This document shows positions 27,487-42,950 of a DNA stretch of 50,718 nucleotides, piece after piece. Numbering within the stretch: position 1 is the stretch's first letter; each line of letters starts with the position of its first letter. The translations under genes were made by a program, and so were the position numbers. Source of the stretch: Limisphaerales bacterium (GTDB lineage Bacteria > Verrucomicrobiota > Verrucomicrobiia > Limisphaerales > SIBE01). The notes under the pieces were generated by a model. The model ran no database searches. It saw nothing but the letters and a program-made list of their open reading frames with translations, and had not been told where the DNA came from. The stretch covers positions 1 through 50,718 of the forward strand of contig JBGAIN010000041.1 of the NCBI GenBank assembly GCA_044225505.1, written 5' to 3'.

Positions 27487-27666
27487 GCAACACGGTTATC
27501 GAATCGATTGAGCTCTGGGTGCGCCGTTCGAATTGGATTCGATGGCTTCTGGCAGAGCGTCGGTAGGCTGCGCGTTCGGGAGTTCGGCGTCAAGTGTGCA
27601 GCCGTAGGCGATACGGATTGAAGACTCGCTGATTCTTGGGAACACCGGCGGGGATCGTTCGTATTT

Positions 27667-27753
27667 AACAGGGAGACAACATGGAATTAACAGGGATATA
27701 ACACGGATAAAACCCGTGTTATATCCGTGTTATATCCGAGTAATCTCCGTGTT
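27667..27753. repeat. Inverted array of 11-bp units (4 forward, 4 reverse) forming an ~87-bp palindrome
   Basis: AACAGGGAGAC AACATGGAATT AACAGGGATAT AACACGGATAA, then (A)AACCCGTGTT ATATCCGTGTT ATATCCGAGTA ATCTCCGTGTT. Confidence 0.85.
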
Positions 27754-28927
27754 ATCTACGGACGAAGGGCCGGCAGATCCCGAATCCCGACTCGACCTTG
27801 AGTCGGCTCGCCCTGCTCGCAAGTCGGCGATGCATGATCCAACCTCCGACAAATCCCGCGCCTAAAGCACTCGCGACGAGGGACACCGAATTCTTAGACG
27901 TCGTGCCGTTGCGCCGGTCGAGAGGGTCGCTCGGCCGGTTCTCGAGCGCGGCTGGAGGCGTGGTTGCTTCCGCGCCCTGCGACAAGGCGGCTTCGACCAA
28001 GGCATCGTGGTGCGGAATCCCCTCTTGAGCTCGCCCTTCTTCCGTGACTGCCATCGCATGAGAACTCGGCACGATGCGCGAGCCGGTGGCTTTGGCGTAG
28101 ACTTGCGTGAATTCCGCGCCAAAGAACAAAATGAGCGAGGAATAGTAAACCCAGAGGAGCAAGATCACCACCGATCCAGCGGCGCCGTAGGCGGAGCTCG
28201 TGCTCTCTCGGCCAAGGTAGAGAGCGAGCAAGAACTTGCCGATGGTGAATAGCAAGCTCGTGCCGAGTGCTCCTACCCAGACATCACGCCATTGCACGTT
28301 GGCATCGGGCAAGACCTTGTAGATCATGGCAAAGAGGAGGCTGATCACGAGGAACGAAACGCTAAATTGCAGAATGTGCGCGACCGCCTCGGGCATGGGA
28401 ATCCACTGATTAATCCGCCCGCTCAGCGCTTGCAGAGTGGTCGTCACGACCATGGATACGAGGAGTAGAAACGCTATTCCCAAGACCATGGTGAAGGAAA
28501 GGAACCGTGATCGGACGAAGCCCCAAACACCTTGGCCAGGCTTGGGTTTGACCTCCCAAATCGTATTGAGCGCATCTTGGAGTTGGCCGAAAACTCCGGT
28601 GGCGCCAAAAAGCAGAGCGACAACGCCAAGGATCGTCGCGAGGAGGCTCGAGCCGTGGTTCTGGGTCGTAAGCATGGTCTCTACGGTTTTCGCCGCGGTG
28701 GGCCCCATGAACGACTGAATTTGCGCGTGCACTTCTGTGCTCACGGCGCCTCGATCGAAAACCATGGCGGCCAACCCAATCACAATCACCAGAAGCGGTC
28801 CGAGAGAAAACATGGAGTAATAAGCGAGCGCCGCCGCCAGTCGCGGAACGCTGTCTTCCATGAATTCCGCAACCGTGCCTTTTAGACTGTCCCAGCTGGA
28901 ACCCTTGGTCTGTGCGAGATTGTGCAT
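27752..28927 (-). CDS. YihY/virulence factor BrkB family membrane protein
   Basis: LAAALAYYSMFSLGPLL, LQDALNTIWEV, YKVLPD, AYGAAGSVVILLLWVYYSSLILFFGAEF. Confidence 0.95.
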   Translation of the reverse strand: MHNLAQTKGSSWDSLKGTVAEFMEDSVPRLAAALAYYSMFSLGPLLVIVIGLAAMVFDRGAVSTEVHAQIQSFMGPTAAKTVETMLTTQNHGSSLLATILGVVALLFGATGVFGQLQDALNTIWEVKPKPGQGVWGFVRSRFLSFTMVLGIAFLLLVSMVVTTTLQALSGRINQWIPMPEAVAHILQFSVSFLVISLLFAMIYKVLPDANVQWRDVWVGALGTSLLFTIGKFLLALYLGRESTSSAYGAAGSVVILLLWVYYSSLILFFGAEFTQVYAKATGSRIVPSSHAMAVTEEGRAQEGIPHHDALVEAALSQGAEATTPPAALENRPSDPLDRRNGTTSKNSVSLVASALGAGFVGGWIMHRRLASRASRLKVESGFGICRPFVRR

Positions 28928-29385
28928 TCGAGTCAAGTGTTTGCGTCAGGCGTGTTCCACAAGGATTCTACTGAGCGAGGCCGTGGAACTGGGGGACCGT
29001 TGCGGATAACAGCTAAACTGAAAAAGATGAACGGGGAGAAGGCTCGCCTCGCTTGAATGAACGATCATGAGGTGAATGGCGTTGACGGCACCGAGTTTCG
29101 CGGTGGGGAGCGCCTGGACCCGCACCACACCGGTCTGAGCGCCTTTCGTTGCATATTACTGAAGTAAGGCGCCGATGCCCCAGGCGCCACCGGCCTCCAG
29201 CCTGTTTTGGATTTCAGGTTTTCCCTAAGACCGGTGGCTGCCTTGCGAAGCAAGGGGACGGGGCATGATCTGGCGTGCATTTTCGGCGCGAGAAATGTCC
29301 AAGGGGTGGCGGGATGATCGATCTCGTGCGAAAATCGATTTGCCGGAGTGAGCAGATAGTGCGTCAATGCAGGCGAAACGGTGTT

Positions 29386-31101
29386 ATGAGCGGCGTGCGG
29401 CTGGAACAGAGCATTGAAAAAACGGTTCCGCATGGGGCCTGCCCACGGGCGGCCTGGCGAATTCGTCGCGGCTGGTTGTTCAGCGAGGGGTGTTTGGGGT
29501 CGCGTTGGATGGTGCTGGCGTTCGTCTTGAGCTTGGCCCTCGGCGTCGTGGCGGAGGTTCGAGAGGGGGACGAACTCTTCACGACGGACGACGTCATTGC
29601 CATTCAAATCGAGGTTCCAGCGAAAGGGCTGAAGCAGTTGCAAAGCCGGGGATGGACATGGGGGGGCACCGGACGCGAGCGGCCCGAGGTGGAGGTGACA
29701 GTGCGCGACAAGTCAGGGGTCTACACGAATGTGGCGATGCATTTGAAGGGCGCGGCTGGCAGCTTCCAACCGGTTGACTCTAAGCCTGGCCTGACCTTGA
29801 ACTTCGATAAGTTCATCAAAGGCCAGCGGTTTCACGGGCTGCAGAAGATTTCGCTGAACAACTCTGTGCAGGATCCGAGTTACCTGACCGAGAAGATCTG
29901 TCGGGAATTGTTCACGGCCGCTGGTGTGCCCGCCCCTCGAGCGGATTACGCGACGGTGGAGTTGAACGGTCGGAAGCTGGGCCTCTACGTTTTACTGGAG
30001 GGGTACAACCGGCAGTTCTTGAAGCGGCATTTCAAGAGCGGCAAGGGTCGGCTCTATGATGGAGGGTTTCTCCGTGATGTGGATTCGCCAGCCGCGCAAG
30101 CGCCCGATGCGGTATCTGAGGATCGCTCGACGCTACGCCCGCTGGTGGATGCCGCCAATGATCCCGAAACCACGTCTCGATTCTCGCGTCTGGCGGAGTT
30201 CGTGGATATGGACCGGTTCATTTCGTTTCTGGCCATGGAGACCCTCGTTTGTCACTGGGACGGATATTCCATGAACAAGAATAATTACCGGGTCTACCAT
30301 GATCTGGAGACCGATCGGGTGGTCTTTATGCCGCATGGAATGGACCAGATGTTTGGCGTCATGATGGTCCCTCCAGCGCTGAGCGTCCTGCCGCCGCTGC
30401 AAGGGTTGGTGGCGAAAGCAGTGCGGGAAACGTCCGAGGGCCGCCGGCGTTATTTCCAGCGCCTCCGCCAACTCAATGCATCGATCTTCGATGTCGAGCG
30501 GATTACCAATCGCATCCAGCAATGTGTGGGGCGCGTTCAACCGATCCTGACGCAGTTGGACCCGAGCATGGCTTCTCAGCATCGGGTCGCAGTGGACGAC
30601 TTGTGCGAGCGGATCGCCATTCGCAAGCAAAGCTTGGATGAACAATTGGCCGGTGGGCAGGGAATCGTGCCCGAGTTCGACAGCGCGGGCGTTGCTAAAG
30701 TTTCCGGTTGGGCCGCGAAGACGAATGCGGGGATTCCCGTGGTGCAACAATCGCGGAGCTCGGAAGGCTCTACTGTCTTGCAACTCGCGGCGGGGAGTTC
30801 TCCGACGATCGCATCCTGGCGAGTGAAGGTTTTGCTCGAATCTGGCCATTACAGCTTCGCAGGTCGAATGCGCACCCAGGGAGTCTCTTCCGATCCGCGG
30901 GACAAACGCGCTGGGGCCGGCTTGCGGGTTGACAAAAAGCCAGCTTGGGACAAAACGCTTGGCGATACGGACTGGAAAGAAGTGAGCTACGAGTTCGACG
31001 TGGCCGATGGGCTTTTTGATATTGAGTTAGTCTGCGAACTGCGCGCTTCCCAGGGCCAAGTCTGGTTCGATGCGGATTCCCTCCGCTTGATTCGCCAGTG
31101 A
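29386..31101 (+). CDS. CotH kinase family protein with C-terminal beta-sandwich (carbohydrate-binding-like) domain
   Basis: LKGAAGSF, KP.LTLNFDK, LNNSVQDPSYL.E, LGLYVLLE, HWDGY..NKNNYRVY, F.PHGMDQ. Start uncertain (29275, 29386 or 29509). Confidence 0.88.
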   Translation: MSGVRLEQSIEKTVPHGACPRAAWRIRRGWLFSEGCLGSRWMVLAFVLSLALGVVAEVREGDELFTTDDVIAIQIEVPAKGLKQLQSRGWTWGGTGRERPEVEVTVRDKSGVYTNVAMHLKGAAGSFQPVDSKPGLTLNFDKFIKGQRFHGLQKISLNNSVQDPSYLTEKICRELFTAAGVPAPRADYATVELNGRKLGLYVLLEGYNRQFLKRHFKSGKGRLYDGGFLRDVDSPAAQAPDAVSEDRSTLRPLVDAANDPETTSRFSRLAEFVDMDRFISFLAMETLVCHWDGYSMNKNNYRVYHDLETDRVVFMPHGMDQMFGVMMVPPALSVLPPLQGLVAKAVRETSEGRRRYFQRLRQLNASIFDVERITNRIQQCVGRVQPILTQLDPSMASQHRVAVDDLCERIAIRKQSLDEQLAGGQGIVPEFDSAGVAKVSGWAAKTNAGIPVVQQSRSSEGSTVLQLAAGSSPTIASWRVKVLLESGHYSFAGRMRTQGVSSDPRDKRAGAGLRVDKKPAWDKTLGDTDWKEVSYEFDVADGLFDIELVCELRASQGQVWFDADSLRLIRQ

Positions 31102-31116
31102 TCTGGTATTCGCCTT

Positions 31117-31168
31117 CCTCGTAATCGTAATCGTAATCGTAATCGTAATCCTCTTCGTATTCGTAACC
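31117..31168 (-). repeat. Short hexamer repeat (GTAATC)5 plus degenerate units; reverse complement of the 31709-32003 array
   Basis: CCTC(GTAATC)5CTCTTC GTATTC GTAACC. Confidence 0.9.
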
Positions 31169-31254
31169 TCCCTTTATCGTCCTTCACGCTTGTGTGCCGC
31201 CGCGGCTCTCGTCGCTTCTGAGGGTTTTGACGGATTCACAAAAGCGGTGCCCAA

Positions 31255-31659
31255 TTAACCGTCAAATTCGACGGGTTGCTTCCCGATTCCCTCATGCATC
31301 CTGTATCCAGAGTTCGCCCGGATTAAACCAACCAACATCGAGACGATTCTAAAAAGTCGCTCTTTTCCAGGTTCGAGGTTTTCAGCGCTCCAGCGTCCTT
31401 TGGCGGCCAACACGTCCAGGGCCGCTGCACACTCCAGCGCGGAGCCACGAGCTATGTCGAAGAAACGGCATCGATCTGCCTCAGTGAATTTACCGTTGCC
31501 CTCAGCGATATTGAGAGGGATAGAAGTGCTGGCACGGTCCAGTTGATCGGCGACCGAAAGTGACCTCGGCAAGGCCTGCAAGAATGGTTCAATCCAGCGA
31601 AGATGCTCGATTGCCGCTTGATATACCTCCAGCTTTTCGTGATCAAAGCGTCGGTTCAC
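31255..31659 (-). CDS. Four helix bundle protein (23S rRNA intervening-sequence protein / TIGR02436-like family)
   Basis: FDHEKLEVYQ, DQLDRASTSIPLNIAEGNG, RFFDIARGSALECAAALD, IVSMLVGLI; GTG start. Confidence 0.92.
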   Translation of the reverse strand: MNRRFDHEKLEVYQAAIEHLRWIEPFLQALPRSLSVADQLDRASTSIPLNIAEGNGKFTEADRCRFFDIARGSALECAAALDVLAAKGRWSAENLEPGKERLFRIVSMLVGLIRANSGYRMHEGIGKQPVEFDG

Positions 31660-31708
31660 GCGGAGAATTATGCGGCGTCAGGAAAGGGAAAAGAAGGAGG
31701 AAGAAGCG

Positions 31709-32003
31709 GACGATTACGAAGAGGATTACGATTACGAGGAGGATTTCGATTAGGAGGAGGATTTCGATTAGGAGGAGGATTTCGATTAGGAGGAGGATTT
31801 CGATTAGGAGGAGGATTTCGATTAGGAGGAGGATTACGATTACGAGGAGGATTACGATTACGAGGAGGATTACGATTACGAGGAGGATTACGATTACGAG
31901 GAGGATTACGATTACGAGGAGGATTACGATTACGAGGAGGATTACGATTACTGAGGATTACGATTACGAGGAGGATTACGATTAGGAGGAGGATTACGAT
32001 TAT
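31709..32003 (+). repeat. Tandem array of ~16 x 18-bp units (GAGGAGGATTWCGATTAS)
   Basis: 1 x GAAGAGGATTACGATTAC, 5 x GAGGAGGATTTCGATTAG, 7 x GAGGAGGATTACGATTAC, one 16-bp unit and two terminal variants. No spacers. Confidence 0.97.
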
Positions 32004-32091
32004 GAACAGGGCTGAGAGCTAGATTGGGAGGTGACAGCGGTTTACTTCCAGATTGGACACCAGGAACGGTTCCGCTAGGTTGTGCGGAGGT

Positions 32092-32676
32092 ATGGTCCTG
32101 GTCATCGATAACTACGATTCGTTCACCTACAACCTGGTGCAGTACCTGGGCGAGCTGAAGGCTGACGTCCATGTCCATCGCAATGACCAGATCTCACTGG
32201 AACAGATTCGGGATCTGCGCCCGGAACGGATCCTGGTCTCGCCCGGACCATGCTCGCCGCGCGAGTCGGGATTGTGCAACGAGATCATCCGGACCTTCGG
32301 CCAAACAACGCCAGTGTTTGGCGTTTGCCTGGGGCACCAGTGCATTGGACATACGTTTGGGGCGGATGTGGTCGTGAACTATCGCATGATGCACGGCAAA
32401 ACTTCCCTGATTAAGCATAATGGCCAGGACTTGTTTGAAGGGATGCCCAACCCGTTCATGGCCACCCGTTACCATTCCCTGGTGATAAAGCGGGATACGG
32501 TTCCAGACATCCTGGAAATTACGGCGGAAACGGACGAAGGGGAGATCATGAGAGTCAAGCACAAGCATCTACCTATTTGGGGAGTCCAATTTCATCCGGA
32601 AAGCATTTTGACGGAGAATGGACGGCAGATCCTCCAAAACTTCCTTCGTTTACGCGCATGTCAGCCCGCCGCTTAA
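32092..32676 (+). CDS. trpG: Anthranilate/aminodeoxychorismate synthase component II (glutamine amidotransferase)
   Basis: IDNYDSFTYNLVQY, SPGPCSP, GVCLGHQ, RYHSL, GVQFHPES; GGAGG RBS. Could equally be pabA. Confidence 0.93.
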   Translation: MVLVIDNYDSFTYNLVQYLGELKADVHVHRNDQISLEQIRDLRPERILVSPGPCSPRESGLCNEIIRTFGQTTPVFGVCLGHQCIGHTFGADVVVNYRMMHGKTSLIKHNGQDLFEGMPNPFMATRYHSLVIKRDTVPDILEITAETDEGEIMRVKHKHLPIWGVQFHPESILTENGRQILQNFLRLRACQPAA

Positions 32677-33507
32677 CCTTAGGGCATTCGCCCGATCCCG
32701 ATGACGCGTTCATGTTCTATGCGCTGGCGAAGGACTTGATCCCTGCGCATGGGTTTCAGTTCGAGCACATTTTGCAGGATATTCAGACGCTCAACGAGCG
32801 AGCCACCCGTGGCGAATTGGACATCTCCGCAATCAGCATTCATGCCTACGCTTATGGAGGACACCTACGCTCTCCTCCCCGCCGGCGCGAGCATGGGAGA
32901 CGGCTACGGACCGATGCTCGTGGCGAAGCGCCGGATGGGCCTGAGCGAGCTCCGCCAGAAACGCATCGCGGTGCCCGGCAAAATGACCAGCGCATTCCTC
33001 GCGCTGCTGCTTTGACTGGAGACGCCGGCGTCTCAGTTGGATCTCATTGTGGTGCCGTTTGATCAGATTTTTGAGGCAGTCCGAACCGGGCGAGCGGATG
33101 TCGGCCTTATCATCCATGAAGGCCAGTTAACCTATCGCGACCAGGGCTTGGACCTGTGTCAGGACTTGGGAATTTGGTGGGGGGAAACCAATGACGGCCT
33201 GCCTTTGCCTTTGGGCGGCAACGTTATCCATAAGCGCATCCTGGCTCCCGCTCGTCGCCAGATCTCCGATGTGTTGTCCGCGAGCATCCAGTACAGCTTG
33301 GATCATCGTCCTGAGGCCGTCGCCCACGCGCTGCAGTACGCCCGGGATATGGGTAAAGAGTTGGCGGACAAGTTCGTGGGCATGTACGTCAATCATTGGA
33401 CTCTCGATTATGGCGAGAAAGGCCGAGAATCGATCCGCCGTTTTCTGTCGCAGGCGTTCGATCAAGGCCTGATTCCTAAGCGGCCGGAATTAGAATTTGT
33501 CGCGTAG
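32658..33507 (+). pseudogene. mqnD: 1,4-dihydroxy-6-naphthoate synthase (MqnD; MqnA/MqnD family), interrupted by one frameshift and one in-frame TGA; may be sequencing error
   Basis: [25 protein letters not shown]; frameshift at ~32853; [25 protein letters not shown] at 33013-33015; GLIIHEGQLTY, LPLPLGGN, FVGMYVN. Confidence 0.85.
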
Positions 33508-42095: not shown

Positions 42096-42297
42096 CGGCC
42101 GTCCCTTCGGGACTTGGACCTGATACCATGGCCTACCCGGCGTTGAAACGCCGGGCTAGTATCGTTGCGTCCCTCCGGGACTAAGTCAGGCGGTTGGTTT
42201 CCAGTCCCGGAGGGACAGCGTGAAAGTAGCCGGGCGTTTCAACGCTGGGTCTAGGATTTGATGATGGCATCCGTCCCGGAGGGACGGTTGAAATGAG
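42096..42297. repeat. 202-bp self-palindromic REP-like module, left copy
   Basis: Hairpins GTCCCTTCGGGAC, CCCGGCGTTGAAACGCCGGG and GTCCCTCCGGGAC, followed by their inverted counterparts; 6 mismatches versus the right copy. Confidence 0.92.
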
Positions 42298-42299
42298 GT

Positions 42300-42746
42300 A
42301 TGTCTTACGTCAGTGCGTGTTTCCACTGCGTCTTTAGCACCAAGGAGCGTCAGAAATTGATAAAGCCGGCGTTGCAGGAAAGGCTCTGGCCTTTTCTGGG
42401 GGGAATAGCGCGACAGAACGATATGTGCGCGCTTGCGGTCGGAGGGATGGAAGACCATGTGCACATGCTTCTTTCGTTGCCAGCGGCAATGCCCGTCGCC
42501 AAAGCAATGCAACTGATCAAAGGGGGGTCCTCGAGATGGATTCATGAGACCTTTGCCGATCAACGGCACTTCGCCTGGCAGGAGAAGTACGGTGCCTTTA
42601 GTGTCAGCGTGTCGCAGTTAGATCGGATCATCCAATATATCCAAGGACAACGCGAACATCACCGGGTTAAGACGTTTGAAGAAGAGTTCATCGGGTTGCT
42701 GAAACGTCACGGGATTCATTACGACGAGCGTTATCTGTGGGAATGA
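42300..42746 (+). mobile_element. tnpA: IS200/IS605-family HUH (Y1) transposase TnpA, REP-associated-like context
   Basis: HCVFSTKER, HUH motif EDHVHML, KGGSSRW, FAWQEKYGAFSVS, catalytic-Tyr region YIQGQREHH. Confidence 0.93.
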
Positions 42747-42748
42747 AT

Positions 42749-42950
42749 CGGCCGTCCCTTCGGGACCTGGACCTGATACCATGGCCTACCCGGCGTTGAA
42801 ACGCCGGGCTAGTATCGGTGCGTCCCTCCGGGACTTAGTCAGGCGGTTGCTTTCCAGTCCCGGAGGGACAGCGTGAAAGTAGCCCGGCGTTTCAACGCCG
42901 GGTCTAGGATTTGATGATGGCATCCGTCCCGGAGGGACGGTTGAAATGAG
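42749..42950. repeat. 202-bp self-palindromic REP-like module, right copy (direct repeat of 42096-42297)
   Basis: 196/202 identity to the left copy by manual alignment. Confidence 0.92.

Follow-up and report, generated by a model that had tools for sequence, protein, structure and literature searches.

Genes of the PF05635 type were originally discovered within ribosomal-RNA intervening sequences, and to our knowledge they are without known function. The closest described systems are the ORF-bearing 23S rRNA intervening sequences of Coxiella and Leptospira, which, in the available part of their description (PMC4990558), occur sporadically and carry an S23p/PF05635 protein gene between complementary stem-loop borders. 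The accessible portions of two further sources record PF05635 members near diversity-generating retroelements (DGRs) and in cas loci (PMC10053308, PMC3936711). For the mobile cassettes that we describe in relatives, the comparators are the MIC231-type mobile insertion cassettes (PMC3913671) on ISKra4/p-MULT 4 ends (PMC3942029), as presented in the available sections of both papers. The available text of PMC3942029 gives 8-9-bp duplications and promoter targeting at 13-17 bp for the ISKra4 group, and 'MITE' occurs 0 times in it. Our literature search, with subscription papers and ISfinder outside its reach, returned no report of repeat-armed PF05635 cassettes outside rRNA, or of ISKra4-ended ones.

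The locus analyzed here lies in a stretch of 50,718 nucleotides from a Limisphaerales bacterium (contig JBGAIN010000041.1), which we refer to as the window. An intact four-helix-bundle gene of the FDHEKL clade (31255-31659, minus strand, 134 aa) opens with GTG, and no Shine-Dalgarno-like purine run was seen upstream of it. Its product scores 74.5 bits against the PF05635 profile (cut-off 33.8) and 68.6 bits against TIGR02436 (cut-off 24), and these scores together with its four-helix fold place it in the family. To the left, outside the cassette, is a CotH-kinase-family gene (29275-31101, plus strand; PF08757, 132 bits), whose stop codon is 13 bp from the left arm. To the right, also outside, a TrpG/PabA-family glutamine amidotransferase gene (32092-32676, plus strand; TIGR00566, 243.6 bits, cut-off 121) starts with an ATG at 32092. 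A putative trpG promoter, TTG...17 bp...TAGGTT (32053-32081, plus strand), was matched by eye to the trpG layout of relatives; it falls below the threshold of our promoter/terminator scan, which returned 0 sites.

Two arrays of short repeats flank the gene. The short arm (31115-31166, minus strand), downstream of the gene, consists in the gene's orientation of (GATTAC)5 and variant hexamers of the GANNAN type, and reads on the forward strand as (GTAATC)5 from 31121 followed by CTCTTC; Tandem Repeats Finder reports it at 31119-31166 with period 6 and 8 copies. The long arm (31710-32009, plus strand), upstream of the gene and complementary to the short arm, is built of ~16 18-bp units of GANNAN hexamers, reported by the same program at 31710-32002 with period 18 and 16.4 copies. 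The initial annotation had proposed a four-helix-bundle gene between complementary hexamer arrays, and both the profiles and Tandem Repeats Finder confirm that this arrangement is real. Its single repeat unit for the right array, GAGGAG(GATTAC)2, is found perfectly in 7 units, while 5 others follow the variant GAGGAG-GATTTC-GATTAG.

The window locus has the complementary borders that would be able to form a stem around the ORF. Its arms contain 37 inverted pairs in many registers (for example, 58 nt at 86%), the longest perfect arm-arm duplex being 23 bp. When the region 31102-32020 was folded, the arms paired and the gene was looped out on both the plus strand (z = -3.5, 0/20 shuffles as good) and the minus strand (z = -2.5, 1/20 shuffles as good), as the initial annotation had anticipated. 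Under random placement, ~0.005 opposite-strand array partners within 1 kb would be expected per array. Besides the arms, no long repeat pairs were found near the gene in the window. We found no rRNA match in the window, and the two reverse-transcriptase matches of the genome sit on other contigs, again in line with that annotation; the 23S gene of this genome was not found in its assembly. A related strain at ~91% identity retains the terminal part of the long arm, and a further contig is gapped across the short-arm region. In contigs from four read runs, no joint bypassing the cassette was seen, and the single RNA run reached only part of trpG, so that these reads speak neither for nor against excision.

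Three other features of the window were noted along the way. At 32658-33507, a menaquinone-biosynthesis gene (PF02621) is split across two ORFs, where an assembly error is likely, given the extra bases inserted in one of the read runs. Three Acido-Lenti-1 RNA matches lie at 42136-42902, two of them forming an inverted pair, and two adjoining short 11-bp tandem arrays are present at 27665-27755, where a YihY/BrkB-family gene ends.

To see how far the arms follow the gene, homologues were collected with one genome per species, and 146 relatives were confirmed. The best 80 of these 146 were used, 77 of them with both flanks, and an arm was defined as a run of at least 3 GANNAN hexamers. At least one arm was present in 72/77 of these best-scoring loci and none in 5, compared with 1/137 control windows reaching the arm threshold, so the enrichment of flanking repeats around homologues that the initial annotation had put forward as a check is found. 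An inverted pair of arrays was present in 47/77, and rRNA was absent from 80/80 of the loci (best 80 of 146), in agreement with the proposal of a conserved unit of gene and inverted hexamer arms outside rRNA. These loci are not independent (five share one genome and four another), and several record titles seem mislabelled. In 49 loci from which near-duplicates had been removed, arm-to-arm word similarity within a locus was 0.665, compared with 0.359 +/- 0.033 after shuffling (0/5000 as high), a similarity to which common descent can contribute. Four loci from Planctomycetota (L051, L060, L063, L066) have their arms flipped relative to the gene, with the purine strand upstream, and the arms are still mutually inverted.

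PF05635 is abundant in the bacterial family of the window, with 1-22 matches in each of 13/13 genomes. From 100 matches in this family, 28 of the best-scoring loci of other PF05635 clades were sampled. GANNAN runs were found in 0/28 of them, and inverted arrays of other words, mostly of 7-8 bases, were found in 21/28, above the control range. At loci in G062, G063, and G003 and at family loci L288-L315, we observed a different 7-/8-base word for each clade. Between genomes, dN/dS of the hexamer-clade gene was 0.04-0.20 in 11/13 pairs, the other 2 being saturated, and the gene is by this measure under purifying selection. The cassettes thus differ from 23S intervening sequences in lying outside rRNA (the window and 80/80 loci, best 80 of 146), and in having arms that are tandem hexamer arrays with many registers around a gene that appears to be under purifying selection.

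The cotH-trpG site was compared across relatives. A survey matched trpG in 60/61 relative genomes, and the 29 best trpG loci were compared. In two of them, from G002 and G003, both of the same genus as the window, cotH lies upstream of trpG. The gap in G002 is 58 bp and contains neither gene nor arm, as opposed to 990 bp in the window, which provides, in one same-genus genome, the empty site in relatives that the initial annotation had suggested looking for. In G003, the spacer holds ~0.6 kb of unrelated sequence and no cassette. A four-helix-bundle gene lies upstream of trpG in one of the 29 best loci (G040), where cotH is absent. Given the empty 58-bp gap in G002, the simplest reading is that the unit was inserted at cotH-trpG in the lineage of the window.

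Relatives also carry mobile forms of the cassette. Five homologues in G001 have a common sharp end outside their arms, and elements in this genome follow the order end, arm, gene or remnant, inverted arm, end. The end motif matched 130 times in G001, compared with 0 for the control; related ends gave 44 matches in G062 and 15 in G063, and a 512-bp copy in same-genus G003 is bounded by an end on each side and flanked by a perfect 9-bp duplication. The closest mobile forms are ~500 bp long, have 19-bp ISKra4 (Mutator-like) ends, and contain no transposase. A Pfam search for Mutator-type transposases in five genomes missed the carrier, which was revealed by the end motif in metagenomes: 96 stretches matched, including 1.4-1.5-kb elements with one transposase that scored above the ISKra4 cut-off (218.9 and 224.8 vs 205 bits). 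The cassette-carrying assemblies yielded no whole cognate transposase; among them, G063 has a 79% piece, together with ends located at contig breaks. We rejected L164 as an autonomous element, as its ISKra4 end adjoins a fragment that by eye is an IS110-type transposase. Viral contigs gave 6 matches to the end motif.

The ends are accompanied by target duplications and by a fixed distance to promoter-like sequence. An 8-9-bp duplication flanks 10/29 bounded cassettes, compared with 1/812 mismatched pairs. It flanks only 2/16 full-length ISKra4 copies and 6/6 short elements, the low rate in the former probably stemming from mixed flanks in the assembly of multi-copy elements. At offset 27 outward from the end, TTG is present in 29/84 cassette junctions and 28/88 metagenome junctions, compared with 5 junctions at most at any other offset, and 8/84 cassette junctions have full promoter-like sites. 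As judged from these junctions, end-bearing cassettes insert 27 bp ahead of the -35 box of sigma-70 promoters. The published distance for the group, in the available text of PMC3942029, is 13-17 bp, and the way in which the duplication is counted may perhaps explain the difference. One ISKra4-ended cassette, L009 (2600-2782), is situated immediately upstream of a 6S RNA gene, a position consistent with promoter targeting.

Most mobile copies have lost the gene's integrity. Among the 29 bounded copies, 16 are gutted, 6 broken, and 7 intact; six of the 16 gutted copies have no remaining protein match, and two of these six are possibly false pairings. Within genomes, dN/dS among copies is 0.3-1.1 (7 pairs). 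An intact gene is not required in cis for the spread of ISKra4-ended copies. With their ends, target duplication, and promoter rule, these copies in relatives fit the definition of a mobile insertion cassette as far as the available part of PMC3913671 gives it: they have inverted ends, no transposase, an 8-9-bp duplication, a fixed promoter distance, and internal deletions. They differ in that their cargo is a hairpin-armed PF05635 gene, and the window copy differs further in being without ends or duplication. Six elements (L183, L189, L196, L229, L235, L252) have ISKra4 ends around 140-289 bp of non-coding cargo, each with a 9-bp duplication; this cargo consists mostly of palindromes or short-word arrays and is unrelated to the PF05635 gene. 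The ISKra4-type end seems to collect hairpin cargo.

ISKra4 ends were found in only 11/83 loci, from the four genomes G001, G003, G062, and G063; with 72/83 loci lacking such an end, most insertions are without an identified carrier. In the other 69 external loci, no end remnant was found at offset 27 (0/25 promoter candidates). The gene lies between co-oriented neighbors in 29/63 loci, as judged from crude ORF calls, and for such settings a promoter-targeting transposase is not an obvious route. A generic scan for any end with a duplication returned 3/83 loci, one of them an internal false boundary, and 0/134 controls.

At the window copy itself, an ISKra4-type end was absent by pattern, by profile, and at the point where the promoter would place it. 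The best end-profile scores there were -7.0 and -5.9, compared with at least 17 for true ends. There is no 8-9-bp target duplication, the predicted site matching the end of cotH at 5/9 bases. A 6-base likeness to the end core near 32012, together with this 5/9 match, was recognized post hoc and may also be taken for decayed hexamers, and we did not count it. The genome of the window has 0 matches to the ISKra4 end pattern, and its ISKra4-like transposases are distant only (28-40% identity). In a quick tree with few well-supported forks, the window protein joins a group of 23 rows (SH-aLRT 87) that contains all 11 end-bearing rows, and on this grouping an ISKra4 origin of the window copy is likely. 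Because ISKra4-type ends are missing at the window copy, we infer its own route.

The genome of the window contains further arrays of this type, as well as a sister cassette with another kind of end. GATTAC-type arrays number 48 on 35 contigs, compared with 0.5 in shuffles, and a four-helix-bundle match lies within 400 bp of 7/48. The initial annotation had named hexamers scattered independently of such genes as a sign against its reading, and this sign is present in part, with 41/48 arrays having no such gene within 400 bp. The solo arrays have common head and tail sequences, with one head motif in 20/48 arrays and one REP-like word near 17/48. Some of them (for example, C36:62430, C132:36533, C146:469, C174:7076) were seen inside mosaics of REP-like palindromes.

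An integron array was noted in the same genome (C60:64394-70238, L346, and C311:23515-24918), bordered by a fragment of an integrase and by a full one. The full integrase passes the TIGR02249 cut-off, and the array holds 4-5 gutted C99-type four-helix-bundle cassettes with GATACC-like arms. A GTTRRRY-like core starts 11/14 of the C99-type copies checked genome-wide, and several have attC-like hairpin ends by eye. This sister cassette looks as if it had multiplied in the form of integron cassettes, which it resembles in its core, its attC-like hairpins, and its adjoining integrases. The window copy differs, having no GTTRRRY core or attC outside its arms.

Together, these observations make it moderately probable, in our judgment, that the window carries a passenger cassette packaged in a hairpin, once the cargo of borrowed ends and now immobile. 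Across the protein clade, the gene and its GANNAN arms occur together, both arms using the same words, and in relatives the unit, which does not itself encode a mobility enzyme, moves as the cargo of ISKra4 ends. The window copy would have entered the short stretch that separates cotH from the trpG promoter, most likely through the ISKra4 route, after which the transposon ends would have been lost and one arm would have grown by slippage, leaving the copy immobile. A transcript reading through from cotH would fold the arms into a long stem with the gene looped out. By analogy with the Coxiella intervening sequence, for which RNase III cutting has been demonstrated (PMC4990558, available part), this stem would probably be a substrate of RNase III, which would keep the insertion cheap for the host. 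The weakest step concerns the protein. Its predicted structure has four long helices (pLDDT 86.8), and the structures nearest to the model are PDB 2RLD (BT_0352) and 2GSC (Xcc0516), the latter being also a sequence homologue (E 8e-9). Xcc0516 is a homopentameric ring according to the available part of PMC4990558, and the window protein, probably a pentamer like it, may bind its own arms. Such binding would account for the joint retention of gene and word under purifying selection.

A different reading takes the cassette as a host-domesticated regulator that arrived long ago, with protein and arms tuning the expression of neighboring genes. The arms are triplet runs with a central A, which we take to be reminiscent of TRAP/HutP-type repeat sites, and they stand here before trpG. 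The low dN/dS between genomes (0.04-0.20 in 11/13 pairs) speaks for this reading, as do the sites common to several genomes (e.g., L073/L076/L079/L083), the separate second case upstream of trpG in G040, and the long-arm end retained in the ~91%-identical strain. However, G040 is the only one of the 29 best relative loci with the gene upstream of trpG, and neighbors and orientations differ among loci. Moreover, the putative trpG promoter lies between the arms and trpG, so a trpG transcript would not contain them. We regard domestication as rather unlikely.

The initial annotation had proposed a candidate stand-alone element, selfish or regulatory, whose protein may recognize its own repeats. 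As a stand-alone selfish element, it would have its protein recognize the arms and drive excision, copying, or reinsertion through an RNA or single-stranded DNA stem-loop. The 72/83 loci without an ISKra4 end are in keeping with this idea, as are the tracking of protein clade by repeat word and the relation of the fold to the DGR accessory protein Avd (by structure match, and in the available part of PMC10053308). The claim of independence nevertheless fails for the movement that can be traced, which uses ISKra4 ends and proceeds without an intact gene in cis. Every multi-copy burst examined uses a borrowed device, with ISKra4 or integron-type ends, copies without an intact gene spread, and the protein matched no catalytic family in the TIGR and Pfam profile searches. 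We consider a self-driven element improbable.

Alternatively, the association could be passive, the arrays being ordinary dispersed simple repeats, kept with the gene only by descent and gene conversion, and the stem functionless. Such a view accommodates the 41/48 arrays away from any such gene, the 17/48 beside a REP-like word in mosaic clusters, the arm lengths, which are very unequal in the window and variable between strains, and the unrelated palindromic cargo of six ISKra4-ended elements. It does not accommodate the arms as readily: although non-coding, they stay inverted between loci with synonymous divergence that is saturated or near 1, and the same layout recurs with different words in the 21/28 other-clade loci. 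We judge it quite improbable that the pairing of gene and arms is incidental. Finally, an orphan Avd gene of a diversity-generating retroelement, suggested by the four-helix bundle that the window protein shares with Avd (4DWL, 8UB7) as with Xcc0516/BT_0352 (2GSC, 2RLD), is very hard to credit and already largely refuted by context, since 4DWL is the weaker structural match (TM 0.67, E 0.063) behind 2RLD and 2GSC, identity to Avd is 10-12%, the protein is not basic (neutral pI of 6.3, 18 K+R vs 19 D+E), and no reverse transcriptase or template repeat is linked to the gene, both reverse-transcriptase matches being on other contigs.

Within the passenger-cassette explanation that we favor, the additions made here are the clade with hexamer arms, its ISKra4 carrier that targets promoters, and the form found in integrons. 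As a tentative and rather doubtful generalization, each PF05635 clade may read its own 6-, 7-, or 8-base word; a ring protein with inverted arms would then be a self-addressing module that folds its gene out of host transcripts and is borrowed by unrelated mobility systems (ISKra4 ends, integron sites), with rRNA intervening sequences as a special case and many short-word arrays as debris. The window copy would be an immobile example, so the value of the finding lies more in the class than in the site. The carrier targets promoters, and the hairpin cassettes are therefore placed where host transcription can be affected. That gutted copies of a single cassette recur in the integron array may be relevant to the way in which integron cassettes arise. 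For the PF05635 family, these results provide a traceable DNA route, for which the transposase family can be named and the ends and target rule are defined exactly, and a repeat word that matches the protein clade offers a handle on an orphan Avd-like fold.
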